DNA of 64,000 bases from Dictyostelium discoideum (taxonomy: Eukaryota). The position numbers and the translations under genes are program-made. Positions 5,821 to 64,000 of the stretch are shown here, one piece after another; positions within the stretch are counted from its first letter, which is position 1; each line of letters starts with the position of its first letter. The notes below the pieces were generated by a model. It saw nothing but the letters and a program-made list of their open reading frames with translations. It ran no database searches and was not told where the DNA came from. The stretch is taken from assembly GCA_000004695.1 (NCBI GenBank), contig CM000154.2, positions 4,736,001 through 4,800,000 of the forward strand, read 5' to 3'.

Positions 5821-6301
5821 TTTAATTGATTATTTATTTATTTATTTTTTATAATTTTTCTATTCAATTTCAAATTTTTTTTATTTTAATTTAATTTCTT
5901 CCAAAACCAAATAATGATTTTCAGAAATGAAATGGGTGGGAATAATATCTGGTTTGATTTTTTTTTTTTTTTTTTTTTTTTTTNNACTTAATTTTTCAGT
6001 TTTTTTTGTTTTAGCCGAAAAACACACACTTTTGGGATTGATTATTACCCTCATATTTTCAGAAAAAAATAAAAAAATTTAAAAAAAAATAAAAAACCAA
6101 AAAAAAAAAAAAAAGATTTTTTTTTTAACACCAACACAAAAAAAAGTTACTTCGAAATCTACTTTTTTTTTGATTTTTTTTTTTTTATTATAAACACATC
6201 ATCTTTTTTTTTTTTTATAATCTCTTTAATTTTTTTTTTTTTTATAGTCTCTTAAATTAATTAAACTGCTATGTGTAATATAATAAATAAATAAAAATAA
6301 A

Positions 6302-7720: not shown

Positions 7721-9026
7721 TAAATAATTTTTTAATATTAAAAAAAGAGAAAAAAAAAAAAAAAAGTAATAATTATTTTTATAAAAATATATTTTTTATT
7801 TATCAATTTCTTAAAGAGTTTAAAACCTGATTTCTATGGCAGTAGTGAACTAGTTTGTAAAAATTTTGATATTTTTTGTGTCTTTTATGGTGAGTTGAAT
7901 ACGCACTGGATAAGGTTTCTCTAAATAAAAGTTTGGAACTTTATGTTGAATGCAAATACTAGGATAGTTTTAAAAGTATTTGCTTTTTTATATAAAACAT
8001 ATGGTTGGGAAGTAGCAGATGTTTACCATTCTCACCAATTACAGAGGTTGTAGTAATTGGAATGGCATTATCCAATGAATTTGGTGGATGTGGTGTTTGA
8101 GTCTCCATTGTGATAAAAGTTTTTTTGTTTATTATTTTTTTTTTTTATATCAAGAAAAAGGTTTGCAAAGGTGCATCCATTTCACCATTACCAATTCAAG
8201 TAACACCAAGTATTAATCCTTTTGAATTGATAATGGTAATCTCATTGATTGTGAACTGGTTGGCGATGGTGGTGGCGATTTACTACTATACATTCGTTTC
8301 AACCACCACCGATGTTGAGGAGAATGATCGTTAAAGAGTTATCAAATTTAATAAAGAGAATTTATTATCATCACATCATCGGTGGTGGTTGAAATGAATT
8401 CAGAGTTGAAATCATATAAAGAGGGGTACCATTGTAAAGATATTACTATGGTATTTGAAATTCATGAAGCCGCTGGTTTAATAGGAAAAGAATTTTGTTT
8501 GACTGGCTGGACTTGAAAATATGAAATAAAAATGCTAAAAATGTATCATTGGAAAGAGATATTAAAAATGTATTTGAAATTCATGAAAGCGCTGGTATGA
8601 TTGGTAAAGAATGTTGTTCCACTTGCAACAATGAACCAGAGTACCAGCAAACACATCGGCATTGATTGATATCATAGAGTTAATTAAAAAAAACTATAAA
8701 ATAAAATTTTAAAAGTAATCCAAAATAATTATAATGATATTTAAAAAAAAAAAAAAAATAGATAATGTATCTACTACTAAAAAATTTATCCATACTTTTT
8801 TCTTCTTTATCTATTATCTACTCTTTTTTAAAATCATTTGGAAATCTAAAGATTTAAACTGATTTCTTCTATTTTTTCAAATTTTTAATATTGATGTTGA
8901 TAAGAATAAAATAAAAAAGTGAAGTTACAATTTTAGAAAGAAAAAAAAAAAAGAAAATAATTTTTAATATTAATTCTTTTTTAATTTTTTTTCTATTTTT
9001 TATTATTATTATTATTATTTTAAATT

Positions 9027-31055: not shown

Positions 31056-32033
31056 ATGTTATCAGCTGCTCCTAAACCAACTCCACAAAATAAAAAACAA
31101 TCATTTTATAATAAATTATGGTGTATGGTTTGTAGAATTCAAGATCCAGATATTATTGAAGATTATGCAAAAGGAGATTTAATTTGTAGAGGATGTGGTG
31201 TTGTTGTTGGTGATCGTATTGTAGATGAACATTCCGAATGGAGAACCTTTTCCAATAGTGAAAGTACAGGAGCCGATCCAAATCGTGTTGGTGGTCCAAT
31301 TAATCCTTTACTTCGTGATTCAGCATTGTCTACAACAGTTGGTAAGGGTTCAAAAGATTCAGGTACATTAACTCGTCTTCAAAATAAGAGTGCTTTGGGT
31401 ACTGGTGATCGTAATTTGTTAGCAGCTTTCAAAGAGATTGGTCGTATGGCCGATCATATGAACCTTCCACAAACAGTTCAAGATCGTGCCAATGAATTGT
31501 TTAGATTTATGGATGATAAGAAATCCACCAAAGGTAGATCTGTCGATGGTATGGTCGCCGCCGCTTTATATATAGCCTGTCGTCAAGAGCATCTCTCACG
31601 TACCTTTAAGGAGATTGCTGCGTTGACCAATGTTCCAAAGAAAGAGATTAGCAGATGTTATAAAATTATGAAAGAAACCTTTGCTAGTGTATTGAATCTT
31701 CAAACCATCTCCTCTGAAGATTTCACAAGTCGTTTCTGTTCAACTCTCAAATTACCAAATGACGTAAAGAAAGGCGCTGAACACGTCAGTAAAATGGCCA
31801 TGGATATGGGTATTGTTGCAGGTAAATCACCAATCTCTGTAACTGCTGCCTCAATCTATATGGTCTCTCAATTATCACCCGAGAAGAGAACTCAAAAACA
31901 AATCGCTGATGTTAGTGGTGTATCTGAGGTAACCATTAGAAATGCTTACAAAGATCTTTACGCTAAAAGAGATCAATTAATTCCTTCCGACTCTCCTTAT
32001 TTCAGTCAAGTTCAATATTTACCAACAAATTAA
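31056..32033 (+). CDS. gtf2b: Transcription initiation factor IIB (TFIIB). Single exon, 325 aa.
   Basis: N-terminal zinc ribbon CMVC…CRGC. B-finger/linker. Two cyclin-like repeats (RSVDGMVAAALYIACRQEHLSRTFKEIAALTNVPKKEISRCYK and KSPISVTAASIYMVSQLSPEKRTQKQIADVSGVSEVTIRNAYKDL). Confidence 0.9.
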   Translation: MLSAAPKPTPQNKKQSFYNKLWCMVCRIQDPDIIEDYAKGDLICRGCGVVVGDRIVDEHSEWRTFSNSESTGADPNRVGGPINPLLRDSALSTTVGKGSKDSGTLTRLQNKSALGTGDRNLLAAFKEIGRMADHMNLPQTVQDRANELFRFMDDKKSTKGRSVDGMVAAALYIACRQEHLSRTFKEIAALTNVPKKEISRCYKIMKETFASVLNLQTISSEDFTSRFCSTLKLPNDVKKGAEHVSKMAMDMGIVAGKSPISVTAASIYMVSQLSPEKRTQKQIADVSGVSEVTIRNAYKDLYAKRDQLIPSDSPYFSQVQYLPTN

Positions 32034-35024: not shown

Positions 35025-36318
35025 CTATAGGGGGTTATTATTATTATTATTTAATTTTTTAATAAAAATTTTAATTGTTAATTTATTATCAGTACTCAAC
35101 CAACCAAACTTTTTATCTTGGAATTCACCAAAGCCGACAGACCTGTGGAGGGTTCTGTTTGGTCCTTTAAATTTGATTGATTTCGACCTATCCAAATAAT
35201 TAACTATGGTAAAAATATATTTTAAATTAACCGATGGTTTTGTTTTAAATCCAATACAAGTTGGAGAAATTGAAAATGCACCTTTGGAAAAAAAAAAGTT
35301 GAAATTCTTCATTTTCAAAGTTAAATGGTTGAGAAAAAATTTTACCATTTGGTATGTTTGAAAAAATCCATTTGTTTTTGTATGTAGGAGAATAAGTGCT
35401 ATCCATTTTAGTGATAAATGAAGAAAGATTATTATTTTTTATTTGAAGTTCATCAATCTTTTTAACTAGCTCATCTTGGGTTTTATTTGATTCATATAAT
35501 GTTGATAATTTTGAAGATAGTTTTTCAATTAACAGACCTATGAAAAATTGATGATTTACATTCTCTTAATGGTTTAGTAACTCTGATCTTTCCATATAAA
35601 CTTTACAACCATATTCATAGTATTTACATGGTATTATTGAATAATTACAATCATACTCTGAATGATTTTATTTGATCTCTTTCAACCATAATTGAACAAC
35701 CTTGTGGACAGTCAATTGGAAATTTTGGGTATATATCATGATGATTCTCTAATTCCATTTGAATGATATCATCACAAGCACAATACTCACATTTAACTAA
35801 TTTGTAATCACATTTATTTTCATGTTCTTCTAATGAATTTAATCTTAAAACTATATCACATCCATCATGTGAACATTTTTCAAATTTAAATATACAATTT
35901 TCTATATGTATATCTAATTGATCTACATTTATTATTTCTCTACAACCATTCTCTTCATCTTTTACAAATATTCTTTTTTCATTTTCTTCATTTTCATATT
36001 CTTGATTGGCATCAATAAAATAATCAAAGTATGAGTAAATACAACAACATTCTTTTTTAGCAAAATTTTTTCAATTACTAAACATCTTGATAAATCTTTA
36101 AATGAATTCACTTCCGATCTACAAATCATACATTCTTGTTTTGTTTCTAATGATTTCTCCCAACATTCTCTACATGCATAATGACCAGATCTACATTGAT
36201 AAACTGATTTTTTATAAAAATATTCAAAACAAATTGGACATGAATATTTATTTTTCTTTTGTAATGATTCTTGATTTAATAAAACATTATTGATTGTAAA
36301 TTTTGAATTTATTGACAT
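35025..36318 (-). pseudogene. TRAF-like pseudogene (full-length relic, copy A of the duplicated unit). RING N-terminus intact, middle disrupted by frameshifts/stops, MATH-like C-terminus in a separate frame.
   Basis: 35962-36318 reads [83 protein letters not shown], then the frame is lost. 35025-35348 encodes a MATH-like tail. The intervening TRAF-finger region is only readable across several frame breaks. Confidence 0.55.
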
Positions 36319-36651
36319 TCTTTGTTATAAAATTATATATATATATTAAAATATATATATTAAAAAAAAAAATATAAAATAATAAAAAAAATTAAAAAAT
36401 AAATAAAATTGAAAAAAATAATAATAATAAAAAAAAAAGTGAGTGTGTTAATTTTTTACAAATAAATTTGCTATTATTTTTTTATTTAAAAAAAAAAAAA
36501 AAAAAGCTATTTTTATCACCAAAAAGAAAAAAAAAATTAAAATTTTAAGCGGTGGAAAAAAATAAAAAAAGTTATTTTTAGTTGTATCTTTTATTTCACA
36601 ATAAAAAATAATTAAAAAAAAAAACTAATAATTAATAAAATAAATAATTGG

Positions 36652-36693
<42 letters not shown>

Positions 36694-36783
36694 AAAATTA
36701 AGTTCTAGTAACATTTAAATCAAATTTTTTAATAATCTAAAAATGTTTATAAAAGATAGAATGATTAAAAATTTATTTGGTAT

Positions 36784-36815
<32 letters not shown>

Positions 36816-36841
36816 CATTGTAAATGTTATTAGAATTTTAT

Positions 36842-46775
<9,934 letters not shown>

Positions 46776-47614
46776 TTTTTTTATTTATTTTTAAAATTAA
46801 TATGAAACTTTTTATTGATAATTTTTAAGTTTTTGTTTAAAATTAAAATTAAAACAAACAGCGGGTGGAAAAAATAATTAAATAAAAAATTAATATATAA
46901 AAAAAAAAATAATTAAATAAAAAATTAATATATAAAAAAAAAAAAAAAAACTGAATTGGGGGTTCTATTTTTGTTAAACTTTTAATCTAACAAAACTCAA
47001 AAATATTGGTTAGAAAAAGCAAAACAAATTTAATTATTATTATCTTTGTCTTTGGTTATTATTTTTTATTTTATTTTACTATGTTAATGGAAAAAGGGTT
47101 ATTTTGTGTTTGTCAATTTGCAAAAAAAAAAAAATGTTTTGGTGTGTGTTTTTTTTACCCCCTTAAATATGACCAAAATTAATAAAATTTAATTTATTTT
47201 TATTGTACACCCAAATTCCACAAATACAATTTAATATTTACCTATACATCATGTTAATAAAACTTGGTGTGAGACCTTTTCTGGAAAAAAATTCAAATTT
47301 TTACGGAAAATGGAAAATGGAATATTTTCTAGAAAAATTTAAAAATAATGGAAAATAATGGAAAATTAAATTATATAAAAAAGGGTATAGTTTAAATAAA
47401 AAAAAAAATAAAGTTTTAATTTTATTTAATTTGAAAAATTATTTTTTCGAAATAACTTAATTTATTCCGGGATAACTCGATCTTTTTTAAAATATGCTGA
47501 GTTAATTATAATTAATTCAATTATCCACTGATAGATCCAATACTAAAAAATAGAAAATATTAGAATTTTTAAATTTTATTAATTCGGGGTTATTTTTTTT
47601 TTTAAAAAATAATT

Positions 47615-47794
47615 GTACCATGCCAAAATTACCATATTAATTTCAGCAGCCATATTAATTTTGGCATGGGACTTATGTCTGCCAAAATTACCGTATTAAT
47701 TTCAGCCTAAAATAGTTGGTCTGTGCATGCCAAAATTAATATGGCTGCTGAAATTAATATGGTAATTCTAGCAGACATAAGTCCCATGCCAAAA
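47615..47794. mobile_element. Solo ~180-bp palindromic MITE-like element, the same repeat family as the terminal inverted repeats of the 60383-62197 insertion
   Basis: It begins gtaccatgccaaaattaccatattaatttcagcagccatattaattttggcatgggac, a 57-nt hairpin unit. This is followed by a second palindrome ttatgtctgc…gcagacataa and a restart of the unit (gtcccatgccaaaa). It matches the reverse complement of 60383-60563 nearly base for base. Confidence 0.5.
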
Positions 47795-49019
47795 ATAATT
47801 ATAATAATTATTAGAAAATAGGATATTTTATAAAAAAATAAGATTTTTTATTAAAAATGTAACCTTTATTATTTTTTAAATACAATATATTAAAAAAAAA
47901 GATAAATAATAATAAAAAAAAAATAATACAATATATTAAAAATTGTACCATTATATAATTTTTAACATATTTTATTAAAATATAATAAATACTAAAAAAT
48001 GAGATAATATATAAGAAGGTTATAAATTTTATTAATTATGGTTTAAGTAATCCCTAAAAAATAAGATAAAAAATAATAAATTTTATAAAAAAAAAAAAAA
48101 ATATATAAAATTTCTTTTTATTTTTTCATTTTTTTTTCATCTTTTTTTTTTTCCAAAGTAAGTAAATTTTCATTATTGTTTGAATAAAATCAGTAAACTA
48201 ATTATTAAATTAGAATAAATAAAATTGATGAAACAACTTAAAAAAAAAAAAAAAATAATAAAAAAAAAAAAATAAAAAAAATTTAGAAAAATAATTTGGC
48301 TTTTTTGGCACAACAATGTCCAATAAATTTAGTTAGTAAAAATTCAGACAGATTAATATTGCCATTATGTAAAGGTATGATATCAAATAATAATTAAATC
48401 AAAATAGCTTTAATACTAATTATTTCTTTTTTTTAAAAAATTAAATAGATGTCTATTTAATTTTTTCAAGACCAGAGAAATCCAATGTAGCCTCATCTGA
48501 ATGCATTGCGAATACCCATTGTATCCTGTAATACCAATTAATTCCAATGTGGCTTCATCTGTTGCAAATCGATTTTCATTTATTAAATCTTATAATAATC
48601 TATTAAAATTTCTTTTTTTTTAACATATTTTAAAATTATTAATTAATTTAATAAATTTTATTATTAGTATTATTTTTTGATAATATTAAAATAATAATAC
48701 TAATAATAAAATTTATTAAAAATTAATAATATTTTTTGATTAATTTTTATAATAAATAAGGAATAGATTATATAAAAAAAATAAAAATTCTTATATTTTA
48801 ATATTTTTTATTTAAATATTTATTGTACACCCATTATTTTTTATCATTTTATTATAGTTTTTAATAATATTATTAAATTATAGTTTTATGTTTTAAAAAT
48901 GAGAAATTACAATAGTAAAATTTCCCACAATATGGTAAATCAATAAATTTTTTATAATTTAATGACAAATTAATATTCAATTTTATTTAAATAATATTAA
49001 ATTTTATCTTTTGGTAGGC

Positions 49020-49759
49020 TTGAAAAAACCCATTTGTTTTTTTATGTGGGCGAATAAGTACTATCCATTTTAGTGATAAATGATGATAGATTATCATTTT
49101 TTATTTGAAGTTCATCAATCTTTTTAACTAGCTCATCTTGGGTTTTATTTGATTCAGATAATGTTGATAATTTTATCATGATGATTCTCTAATTCCATTT
49201 GAATGATATCATCACAAGCACAATATTCACATTTAACTAATTTGTAATCACATTTATTTTCATGTTCTTCTAATGAATTTAATCTTAAAACTATATCGCA
49301 TCAATCATGTGAACATTTTACAAATTTAAATTAACAATTTTGTATATGTGTATCTAATCGATCTACATTTATTATTTCTCTACAACCAGTCTCTTCATCT
49401 TTTATTAATATTCTTTTTTCATTTTCTTCATTTTCATATTTTTGATTGGCATCAATAAAATAATCAAAGTATGAGTAAATACAACAACATTCTTTTTTAG
49501 CAAAATTTTGTTCAATTACTAAACATCTTGATAAATCTTTATATGAATTCACTTCTGATCTACAAATCATACATTCTTGTTTTGTTTCTAATGATTTCTC
49601 CCAACATTCTCTACATGCATAATGACCAGATCTACATTGATAAACTGATTTTTTATAAAAATATTCAAAACAAATTGGACATGAATATTTATTTTTCTTT
49701 TGTAATGATTCTTGATTTAATAAAACATTATTGATTGTAAATTTTGAATTTATTGACAT
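49020..49759 (-). pseudogene. TRAF-like pseudogene (copy B of the duplicated unit): RING N-terminus retained, ~550-bp internal deletion relative to copy A, MATH region residual
   Basis: 49331-49759 reads [22 protein letters not shown]…[36 protein letters not shown]…, near-identical to 35962-36318. 49020-49330 aligns to 35335-35520 and 35700-35790 of copy A, with the intervening segment missing. Confidence 0.5.
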
Positions 49760-50014
49760 TTTTTGTTATAAAATTATATATATATATTAAAATATATATA
49801 TTAAAAAAAAAATATAAAATAATAAAAAAAAATAAAAAATAAATAAAATTGAAAAAAATAATAATAATAAAAAAAAAAGTGAGTGTGTTAATTTTGTTAT
49901 TATTTTTTTTATTTAAAAAAAAAAAAAAAAAAAGTTATTTTTAGTCGTATCTTTTATTTCACAATAAAAAATAATTAAAAAAAAAAACTAATAATTAATA
50001 AAATAAGTAATTTG

Positions 50015-50051
<37 letters not shown>

Positions 50052-50201
50052 AAATTTAATTTCTAGTAACATTTAAATCAAATTTTTTAATAATCTAAAA
50101 ATGTATTTAAAAGATAGAATGATTATTAAAAATTTATTTGGTATTTTAAAAATTTTTTTTTTTTTTTTTTTTTTCCATTGTAAATGTTATTAAAATTTTA
50201 T

Positions 50202-60077
<9,876 letters not shown>

Positions 60078-60946
60078 TTTTTTTATTTATTTTTAAAATT
60101 AATATGAAACTTTTTATTGATAATTTTTAAGTTTTTGTTTAAAATTAAAATTAAAACAAACAGCAGGTGGATAAAAAAAAATAATTAAAAAATTAATAAT
60201 ATAACTAATTAATAAAAAAAAAAAAAAAAACTGAATTGGGGGTTCTATTTTTGTTAAACTTTTAATCTAACAAAACTCAAAAATATTGGTTAGAAAAAGC
60301 AAAACAAATTTAATTATTATTATCTTTGTCTTTGGTTATTATTTTTTTTTTATTTTACTATGTTGTGGAAAAAGGGTTATTTGTCCCATGCCAAAATTAA
60401 TATGGCTGCTGAAATTAATATGGTAATTTTGGCATGGGACTTATGTCTGCTAGAATTACCACATTAATTTCAGCAGCCATATTAATTTTGGCATGCACAG
60501 ACCAACTATTTTAGGCTGAAATTAATATGGCTGCCGAAATTAATATGGTAATTTTGGGCATAGAAAAATAAAAAAAAAACTCAAAGTCATTTAATTAATA
60601 ATCATCTCAAATATAAAAGAATTAAAAATAATAAAAAAAAACTCATGGGATTAATTACAGTAACAATACTGATGACAAGAATAATTATAAAATAAAAAAA
60701 AAAAAAAAATCTTTTTTTATCTTTTTATTTTTATTTCTTATTTATTTTCATGTGTTCAAAAAAAGTGGTGGTTTAAAACAATTTATTTAATTTTAAACTG
60801 TATGATTGTTTAAACAATTTCGAAATAAGTTTCTTTAAAGAAATTCTGTATTTCTTTTTTATTTTATTTTATTTCATTTCATTCTAATTTTTTTTTTTTT
60901 TTTTTTTTTATTTTTTTATTTTTTTTTTTTTTTTTGTATATTTAAG

Positions 60947-61100
<154 letters not shown>

Positions 61101-61284
61101 TACTATTATTTAATTGACCGAAGGGATATCTTTTACTTTTTTTTTATATATAATTGTTCGAAACTTTAAAAAATAAAATAAAAAAAAAAAAATTAAAAAA
61201 AAAAATATAAAAAAAAAATTAAAAAAATTAAAAAGTATTTTTTTTTTTTATTTTTTTATTTTTCCACCCGAAGATGTCGCTTTT

Positions 61285-61686
61285 TTGGAATTTAAAGATG
61301 TTGAATTCAATCAAAGTGATGAATTTGGTGTATTATTTAACGAAGTTACTATTGATAAAAATGATTTGAAGTACAAAGTAAATGTTGAATTTAGAGAGGC
61401 GGAGACAAGTAAAAATAAATTGCAAAGGGATATCGAAATAACCAAAAGAAAATCAACAGATGACCTAGTTGAAAAAGCAATCGAGCACTCTACCACCGAA
61501 GTTAGATCAACACATGAAGCTGCAACAACTTCCAATAATGGTGGAATCACAACTCAATCAAACAAAAACAAAACGGGTAAAAAAAGAGCTAATCAATTAC
61601 AATCTGATGCTGATTTTACCAAAAGATTTTCAAACGAAACTTCATCTGTTAGTAACAAAAGAGAAAGTAGAAGAGTCAATAATTAA
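61285..61686 (+). other. Internal ORF of the TIR element, 133 codons, no in-frame ATG (begins at TTG); unassigned
   Basis: Only stop-free stretch inside the element. Composition is less AT-biased than its surroundings. Charged, K/E/T/S-rich product …EFKDVEFNQSDEFGVLFNEVTIDKNDLKYKVNVEFREAETSKNKLQRDIEITKRK…. No recognisable domain. Confidence 0.25.
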
Positions 61687-62579
61687 AATAAAAAATTAAA
61701 AAAAAAAAATTATTTTAATTTTTTTTTTTTTTTTTTTTTTTTATTTTTAATTTTTTTTTTTATTTTTAATTTTTTTTTTTGTGAGCCGTGGACATAAATG
61801 AATAATAAAAAAATATATCAACTAAAAAAAAAAGAAATGAAAATAAATTATAAAATTAATAATAAAAATAAAAAGATAAAAATAAATAAAAGATATAAAT
61901 AAAATAATATGAAAATTTTTTTTTTTTTTTTTTTTANTATTATAATTATTATAATAAAAATAATAATAATAATAATTTTAGTACTAAAATTTTGTTTATA
62001 TTTGAGATGATTATTAATTAAATGACTTTGACTTTTTTTTTTTTTCTATGCCAAAATTACCATATTAATTTTGGCAGCTATGTACATGCTGAAATTAATA
62101 TGGCTGCTGAAATTAATACGGTAATTTTGGCAGACATAAGTCCCATGCCAAAATTAATATAGCTGCTGAAATTAATATGGTAATTTTGGCATGGGACAGT
62201 TATTTTGTGTTTGTCAATTTACAAAAAAAAAAAAAATGTTTTGGTGTGTGTTTTTTTACCCCCTTAAATATTGACCAAAATTAATAAAATTTAATTTATT
62301 TTTATTGTACACCCAAATTCCACAAATACAATTTAATATTTACCTATACATTAATAAAACTTTTATAAGCTGGCCATTTTTCAAGCGAAAACGATGATGG
62401 AGGGGTAGAAAATGATAATTTACTTAAATATTCTATTCAAAATAAAGAGGATAGAGAAGAAGAAGAGTTGAGTGTGTATTATTTTTCATTTTACATAAAT
62501 ATGTTAAAGTATTGGCCATTAGAAAAAAAAAAAGTTAAAAAATGAAAAAAGTTAAAAAAAAAAAAAGTGAAAATATATT

Positions 62580-62679
62580 NNNNNNNNNNNNNNNNNNNNN
62601 NNNNNNNNNNNNNNNNNNNNNNNNNNNNNNNNNNNNNNNNNNNNNNNNNNNNNNNNNNNNNNNNNNNNNNNNNNNNNNN
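62580..62679. other. Assembly gap (100 N). Single N at 61937 and NN at 5984-5985.
   Basis: Direct reading of n characters. A 100-N run is the conventional unknown-size gap. Confidence 0.95.
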
Positions 62680-63770
62680 TAATGTAGCATGTTTGAAATA
62701 ATGGTTTAATTCCGATTGCTTGATAAGGTGACATGCCGATAGCTCTGTGTTTTCTATTACATATACTTCCAAGGCCTAATTCTAAATAAGAGCTAATTGT
62801 TTGAGTTTTACACTATATTTTCGCTGTCAAATTTGGTAAATAAATGTTAGTAATTTAAAAAATATAGGGTGTAAATTAGAAGAGGGTACTAACTCTTCCT
62901 TTTGAAAATTTCTTATTAATTTTTTAATTTCTTGATTTACTCTTTCCACCATTCCTTGAGTTGTTGGTGTACGAAGTGCTCCATGAGCAGCTTTGGATGA
63001 AAGAAATGCAAACTCGCGAAATTGATCAAACACTTTGTTTTTGAATTCCTTTCCATTATCGCAATGCCACTTCTTGATAAGTTTATCTTTGTATGTAATG
63101 GCCAAAAAATTGTAAATTGGAACTGCTTTTTTATATGTAAGACATCTTTTAAAATAATGGTTAATATAAATAATATTGAACTTTTAGGATAGTATTAAGG
63201 TAATTACCTTCCAGTTGCAAATTTTGTGAAAGAATCGACACAAATAAGAATATAGACAATGTGTGAATCGTTTGCTTCTTTTACATTATCATTTTTGATA
63301 GTTTCCCAATTAGAAGAGAATCTATCGGTAGATTCTATAATGATATCATTATTTCTATGCTCTCCTTTTAAAGATGTTAAATCAAAAACCATTCTTGAAT
63401 ACTCTTCAGTATCTTCAATTGCAACATATTCTTTATTGATACCTATATTAAAATTATTAATATCATTTGATATAAATAATAATTTTTATTAATTTAAATT
63501 AATATTTTACCCTTAATTTTGTTTCTTTGGCATATATCACATTGCTTGACTGCATTATCAACCATTACCCACATACCAGTACAAAAATACATTGACTTGA
63601 ATTTTTGGTAAGTGGCATCTCTTCCAATATGACCTTTATGCATCTCGTCCCAATGGTTTGAAAACTCAACATCATTAATGACCTTACGGAGGACACTAGA
63701 TGAAATGGTTTGGCCATCATTGGTTGTAAAAACTTTCTTTTCGGATTTAAGTAACTCTTCGTGACCATTT
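62680..63770 (-). CDS. Intron-containing integrase/transposase gene (HHCC zinc finger + DDE rve-type catalytic core), partial. Exons 63770-63512, 63442-63208, 63145-62890, 62812-62680. C-terminus truncated by the gap; the N-terminal start exon is probably beyond 63770.
   Basis: Exon 1: HWDEMHKGHIGRDATYQKFKSMYFCTGMWVMVDNAVKQCDICQRNK (H-x3-H…C-x2-C). Exon 2: RMVFDLTSLKG…HIVYILICVDSFTKFATG (first Asp, second Asp region). Exon 3: WHCDNGKEFKN…RTPTTQGMVERVNQEIKKL (D…E). Exon 4: LGLGSICNRKHRAIGMSPYQAIGIKP. Junctions: donor GTAAAA with acceptor atAG; donor GTAATT with acceptor aaAG; donor GTACCC (weak) with acceptor atAG. Phases 1, 2 and 0 all close. Confidence 0.6.
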
Positions 63771-64000
63771 CTTTAAAAAATTAAGATTATATTATTAGAT
63801 ATTTTAATAATGAATTTGATTCAACATTATGAAACTTATAAACATACACAGCAAAGAAAAATGCACCTTTAAAGCAAATTTAAAGAAAAGTTGATTTAAA
63901 TTGGATTTAAATTGAATTTAAAGCCGCGTTTAAAAAATTCATTTTTAAGGTAATTTTTAAGGTAATTTTTAAGATATTTAAAAATGCCTTTAAAATTTGC
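62680..64000. mobile_element. Tdd-4-like DNA transposon (integrase-encoding, spliced) extending past the window end, adjacent to the assembly gap
   Basis: The spliced integrase gene argues against an LTR retrotransposon origin. Short direct repeats (ttaaggtaattttt x2, atttaaa motifs) at 63880-64000. Family assignment is from memory of Dicty DNA transposons, not from alignment. Confidence 0.45.

Follow-up and report, generated by a model that had tools for sequence, protein, structure and literature searches.

A probable defective Tdd-5 fragment, interrupted by a second transposon, beside an assembly gap in Dictyostelium discoideum

The end of the window (the whole 64,000-nucleotide stretch of Dictyostelium discoideum DNA that was analysed) very probably holds a partial, interrupted and mutated copy of Tdd-5, a class II (cut-and-paste) DNA transposon, represented by ∼1.17 kb from the middle of the element on the minus strand at 62680-63846 (probability about 0.93). 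Over the zinc finger and DDE core the spliced product is identical to TDD5 (AF298206) at 240/255 residues (94.1%), as against 131/252 (52%) for TDD4 (XP_629668); both reference core sequences are those of the Additional file 1 alignment of Bao, Kapitonov and Jurka 2010 (PMC2836005). Because of this difference the element is assigned to Tdd-5, the sister family of Tdd-4, both of which lie in the Ginger2/Tdd group. The first-pass annotation had proposed a Tdd-4-type DNA transposon; the class was correctly recognised, since this is a Tdd-class DNA transposon with introns and no LTR pol, but the family is Tdd-5. Searching 5.8 billion proteins returned Dictyostelium hypothetical proteins as the only matches. 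Agreement at 94% with a published protein is far more than chance could give. The element is already known and catalogued, and the present copy, which amounts to ∼31% of Tdd-5, adds nothing to the link between Tdd elements and integrases. The observations reported here concern its sequence identity, domain content, exon-intron structure, damage and genomic anchor.

The features at the window end are as follows.

62580..62679, no strand: assembly gap of 100 N, found by N-run scan, which masks the 3' part of the element or stands in its place
62680..62823, minus strand: exon D, placed by the conserved acceptor GACAG/CG at 62824/62823 and by alignment to L001 and the P0002 gene model
62824..62893, minus strand: intron C/D, with GT at 62893-62892 and AG at 62825-62824, sites as in L001/P0002
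62894..63145, minus strand: exon C, with the second Asp (WHCDNGKEF) and the Glu (QGMVERVN); 94% identical to L001, gap-free
63146..63207, minus strand: intron B/C, GT..AG, phase 2, GC 0.18; the L003 HSP breaks at residue 165
63208..63442, minus strand: exon B, with the first Asp (MVFDLT), a ∼45-aa insertion and the DSFTKFATGR motif
63443..63510, minus strand: intron A/B, GT..AG, phase 1, GC 0.06; the L003 HSP breaks at residue 87
63511..63770, minus strand: exon A, the H2C2 zinc-binding domain (MHKGH-x29-CDIC, PF17921), with its acceptor as in L001/L002
63771..63846, minus strand: 3' part of Tdd-5 intron 1, from the TA of the donor GTATGT, by alignment with L001/L002, where exon 1 precedes it
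63847..64000, minus strand: an unrelated TIR element whose last ∼154 bp, end ...CTTTGCTGTG, lie in the intron-1 donor; its target-site duplication is TA

Three-frame translation yields four open minus-strand blocks (63770-63511, 63442-63208, 63145-62894 and 62823-62680), and with a suitable choice of GT...AG sites these combine into a stop-free frame of 293 codons. The motifs follow in the order that had been described from the letters alone: a HWDEMHKGH-x29-CDIC zinc finger, MVFDLT with the first Asp, WHCDNGKEF with the second, QGMVERVN with the Glu and an N..H..SP..G post-core segment, to which exon D contributes ...KTQTISSYLEL..NRKHRAIGMSPYQAIGIKPLFQ. Two finer details of that description need correction, as the histidine pair is H-x2-H (or H-x4-H) instead of H-x3-H, and the glutamate stands 37 residues after the second Asp in place of the D-35-E spacing. 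When the spliced exons were searched, as had been suggested, Pfam Integrase_H2C2 (PF17921) scored above its cut-off (E=1e-9, 38.8 bits vs 25.5) and rve (PF00665) below its gathering score (E=4.8e-6, 27.2 bits vs 32.6). A profile of 11 family members gave E=8.8e-19 with the PFV integrase and ∼1e-11 with HIV-1 integrase cores, and the catalytic residues D107, D194 and E232 are kept in the alignment of all 11 members. The transposase family should, judging from these sequences, work as a D,D,E integrase-type enzyme. The ∼45-residue insertion of exon B is seen only in Dictyostelium copies in the alignment.

On comparative grounds the intervening segments are predicted to be real, spliceosomal introns: they have low GC, are more diverged than the exons, carry GT..AG ends and occupy positions found in relatives. 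GC is 0.06-0.25 in the introns versus 0.29-0.36 in the exons. Exons B and C align to L001 gap-free at 94% identity, whereas the introns are 74-77% identical to it with gaps; the intron C/D figure, ∼74% with gaps versus 94% in exon C, was obtained with intron bounds 2-3 nt off. The L003 copy is 80% identical, and its tblastn segments break at residues 87 and 165, which are the A/B and B/C junctions of the window. Exon dN/dS is 0.31 against L001 and 0.19 against L003, with differences in excess at third positions.

Every junction had been described as closing in phase. This holds for A/B and B/C, which are as in relatives, but the C/D junction then needs TTA/GTACCC and ATATAG/TGT, sites used by no relative, and exon D begins at 62812 as opposed to the conserved start at 62823. 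The relatives splice GAAGA/GTATGT ... ACAG/CGAGAAG, giving QKEDEKIGKTQ in P0002. The corresponding conserved sites are present in the window (GA/GTTAGT at 62894/62893 and GACAG/CG at 62824/62823), and they give EDENIV followed by a stop because of a 1-bp insertion. The third junction as first drawn is thus probably an artefact of indels, and this locus illustrates that indels beside an assembly gap can pass for splice junctions.

The copy cannot be autonomous as assembled, and no intact transposase can come from it, because exon 1 and the 5' TIR are split off, four conserved residues are replaced, exon D is frameshifted and the rest is missing or hidden. Relative to TDD5, three prolines have become leucine (P>L, CCT>CTT), and S>Y and N>H replacements are present as well; all of these but N>H lie in exon C at family-conserved positions. 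Exon D carries indels of +1, +1, -1 and +1 against L001 within ∼140 bp beside the gap; in comparison with TDD5, ALEVYNN has become GLGSICN through a compensated frameshift and QTAT has become QTCYI through a terminal one. These indels may be decay, or they may be sequencing errors or poor sequence beside the gap. Isolated N bases at 5984-5985 and 61937 mark locally low-quality sequence in the assembly, which bears on the trust placed in the indels of exon D.

That the copy is incomplete at the 100-N gap, as the first-pass annotation stated, is borne out. The first real letter after the N run is 62680, and the C-terminal ∼120 residues of the transposase, present in P0002, have no coding anywhere in the window by tblastn of the relatives. 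The gap hides or replaces these ∼120 residues together with the 3' region and the 3' TIR, and the sequence at 62199-62579 on its other side is without Tdd-5 similarity. Between the end of a neighbouring duplication (described below) and the gap lies a 58-codon open frame (62369-62542, plus strand) that ends ..ENDDGGVENDNLLKYSIQNKEDREEEELSVYYFSFYINMLKYWPLEKKKVKK and a stop, with a possible AG acceptor before it; neither this frame nor the sequence 62363-62579 matched any of the fetched sequences. No terminus or target duplication of the window copy is visible, and the terminal sequence of the relatives, TGTTGTAGGGAATTTT..., is absent from the window. Since neither end can be seen, the extent of the element rests on relatives.

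At the other side, the element had been drawn through to 64000. This stands as far as 63846; the remaining 154 bp, 63847-64000, are not Tdd-5. Homology to L001, L002, L003 and L014 ends at 63847, the start of intron 1. Exon 1 is absent from the window, though it is present at all four of those loci, and the first base of exon A finishes a Glu codon begun in that missing exon. The foreign sequence matches at 72% the TIR of a 751-bp element (10582-11332 of L002) that is inserted in a Skipper-like retroelement. The empty sites of L001 and L003 reveal a TA duplication and an element with ends CACAGCAATG...CATTGCTGTG, and in the window the insertion point is the TA of the Tdd-5 donor GTATGT. Given an insertion at the donor TA, exon 1 and the 5' TIR of Tdd-5 are expected beyond position 64000. 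The inserted element is unnamed and non-autonomous, with ∼190-bp TIRs and TA duplication in the manner of Tc1/mariner elements; a related copy lies at 1433-2002 of L005.

The shape of the complete element can be taken from its relatives. The intact Tdd-5 (AF298206) of the Ginger2/Tdd group is 3,783 bp long with 297-bp TIRs (Bao et al. 2010, PMC2836005). Four Tdd-5-like copies (L001, L002, L003 and L014) start at TGTTGTAGGG / TGTTGTAGGGAATTTTTTTTGAAATTTCGC, and this terminus fits the TGTNR rule for Ginger2 (PMC2836005). Their reading frame opens with an ATG exon of its own, which lies 334 bp in from the TIR terminus, and neither RT nor RNase H precedes it. A complete relative, 2780 bp long with ∼294-bp TIRs (5993-6286 / 8481-8772), is found in L014 between two host genes, a ComC-like gene and a kinase gene. 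Two genes are called in it, one with an H2C2 product and one without a Pfam match, and an RT match is found in neither. The L014 element, from D. cf. discoideum, occupies the exact midpoint of a palindrome with 59-bp arms (5934-5992 and 8773-8831); its flanks, ATTTT / AAAAT, are part of that palindrome and show no direct 5-bp duplication in this, the only complete relative. Either the element inserted into a foldback sequence, or its TIRs run past the TGTTG terminus common to the other copies. No 3' end was found in L001, L002 or L003, and L004-L006 (Tdd-4-like copies and a third clade) gave no usable termini. A ∼580-bp foldback or MITE-like element also occurs in the 5' regions of Tdd-type copies (L003 6541-7121, L006 6534-7105, L004 4778-5947) and is 98.5% identical between two loci of one genome.

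An intact Tdd-5 would accordingly be pictured as ∼295-bp TIRs ending TGTTG...CAACA around one multi-exon transposase gene. The product would combine an N-terminal H2C2 zinc domain with an RNase-H-fold D,D,E core, like that of retroviral and Gypsy integrases. By analogy with integrases and with the published description of the group, the transposase would bind the TIRs and cleave at the TG...CA ends; joining of these ends to staggered target cuts would then presumably leave a 5-bp duplication. Such a transposase gene could keep spliceosomal introns because the element moves as DNA.

The window is AT-rich, with GC of about 20%, and its place in the genome can be anchored through its neighbours. 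The ORF for TFIIB (31056-32030) has the same sequence as XP_635486.1 of D. discoideum AX4, and the ORF at 61285-61686 is 100% identical to DDB_G0290953 ("hypothetical protein"), whose contig is inferred from neighbouring locus IDs to be AX4 chromosome 5. The gene pks39 is DDB_G0290943 on NC_007091.3, and the window carries two PKS genes in tandem. GCA_054883475.1 is 99.7-99.85% identical to 21040-42103 of the window; the one PKS cluster that a PKS query of that assembly brought up was a different one, 290 kb away. dictyBase holds two occurrences of Tdd-5, one of which is DDB_G0290955 (PMC3386910). Because the adjacent ORF is DDB_G0290953, the order of the IDs indicates that the window copy is most probably this catalogued DDB_G0290955.

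In rblA-null cells the derepression of DDB_G0290955 amounts to 85-fold, and the gene reportedly has a consensus E2F element (PMC3386910). It is very unlikely that the damaged copy is kept as a spliced unit under RblA/E2F control whose truncated integrase or RNA acts in transposon control or S phase. A domesticated integrase, in which a former Tdd transposase would serve the cell as a host gene, could explain strong RblA-dependent regulation, and the exons of the family are under purifying selection. That signal, however, comes from comparing transposon copies across different genomes, where an active family would be expected to show it. The window copy has lost conserved residues, its exon D is frameshifted and another transposon interrupts it, while L001, L002, L003 and L014 stand beside different genes with unrelated upstream flanks. 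The E2F consensus TTTSSCGC, moreover, is absent from 62680-64000. Domestication is on this evidence exceedingly unlikely. The nearest E2F-like site in the Tdd-5 part is TTTCGCGA, at 63014-63021 on the minus strand, which falls on the exon C codons F-R-E.

Tdd-4 shares the architecture and group of the window element and is the more abundant family, with 19 elements to 2 of Tdd-5 (PMC3386910). A copy of Tdd-4 itself is still hardly tenable, for over the same 255 residues the product is 94% identical to TDD5 and 52% to TDD4, and TDD4 and TDD5 are themselves identical at 136/254.

The reading as the integrase end of an LTR retrotransposon pol of Skipper or DGLT-A type, with the introns explained as frameshift decay, is refuted in practice: the H2C2 and DDE order is indeed that of Gypsy integrases, Skipper-like retroelements adjoin the Tdd copies in L001-L004, and the last 154 bp of the window resemble sequence within the L002 Skipper copy, but that Skipper-internal match is the 751-bp TA-duplicating insertion, missing from other Skipper copies, and it is this TIR element that lies upstream of the Tdd-5 part in the window, in the relatives ∼330 bp of TIR are followed by a separate ATG exon that neither RT nor RNase H precedes, the segments between exons are bounded by GT..AG, very poor in GC and conserved in position, and the product is 94% identical to TDD5. 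No RT-like ORF is listed in window 59000-64000.

The defective Tdd-5 copy borders a tandem segmental duplication of ∼11.5 kb, in which 35734-47265 and 49174-62362 are 91-95% identical by self-comparison. The duplication carries two large polyketide synthase genes (ORFs 37451-44971 and 50799-58256). Its second copy alone contains a 1.8-kb TIR element at 60382-62198, with termini TGTCCCATGCC...GGCATGGGACA; the empty site at 47098-47104 in the first copy gives a target duplication of 6 bp (GTTATT) or 7 bp, and the absence of the element there implies that the insertion post-dates the duplication. Its arms measure ∼320-370 bp at 71% identity, each with a 58-bp internal palindrome. The element encloses an (ATT)n microsatellite and the gene model DDB_G0290953; the left TIR contains the first exon of this model (MAAEINMVILAWDL), and the ORF is multi-copy (DDB_G0271172, DDB_G0281529, ACTFIT_008970, ACTFIW_009629). 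A solitary ∼195-bp piece of the same 60383/62197 family lies at 47606-47800, just past the first duplication unit, and is 97% identical to 60424-60530 and 87% to 62060-62206. The TG...CA ends and long TIRs of the 1.8-kb element recall integrase-type transposons, but its duplication is of 6-7 bp. A link between this family and the integrase gene had been raised by the first-pass annotation and is not upheld. As candidate Tdd-5 termini its ends were rejected, because TGTCCCATGCC...GGCATGGGACA differs from TGTTGTAGGG, there is no BLAST similarity, and the target duplication of 6-7 bp contrasts with the 5 bp reported for Tdd-4/5. A literature search on thug and DDT elements returned nothing relevant to the two neighbouring TIR elements.

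The correct label for the locus is a defective Tdd-5 fragment, neither a host integrase gene nor an LTR pol, and the locus as a whole shows transposons nested one in another where a tandem polyketide-synthase duplication ends. Compared with the Tdd-5 reference, the window copy has, like TDD5, the ∼45-residue insertion in full between the first Asp and DSFTK, and its relatives likewise have ∼294-bp TIRs ending TGTTG; the window copy differs in the foreign TIR element in its intron-1 donor and in having no visible termini. Tdd-4 (XP_629668; AAFI02000006.1:352615-356458) is 3,839 bp long with 260-bp TIRs (Wells 1999, via PMC2836005) and a reported target duplication of 5 bp. It is like the window copy in architecture, group and the motifs MHKGHIGRDATY, WHCDNG.EFKNKV and RTPTTQGMVER, but at only 52% identity of the product it counts as a family of its own.

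Metazoan and fungal Ginger2 elements (Ginger2-1_AP, _BF, _HM, _NV etc.) have the H2C2 and DDE transposase and TGTNR termini in common with Tdd-5, but identity is ∼30%, their target duplications are of 4 bp, their TIRs are shorter (45-180 bp), and they are without the Dictyostelium insertion between the first Asp and DSFTK. The Tdd/Ginger2 group links cut-and-paste transposons to the integrases of LTR retroelements, a link published in 1999-2010. Retroviral and Ty3/Gypsy integrases (PFV 3OYI/3L2Q; Skipper in L002) have in common with it a zinc-binding N-terminal domain and an RNase-H-fold D,D,E core; in contrast to them, Tdd-5 is without gag-pol, RT, RNase H and LTRs, and carries spliceosomal introns and TIRs.
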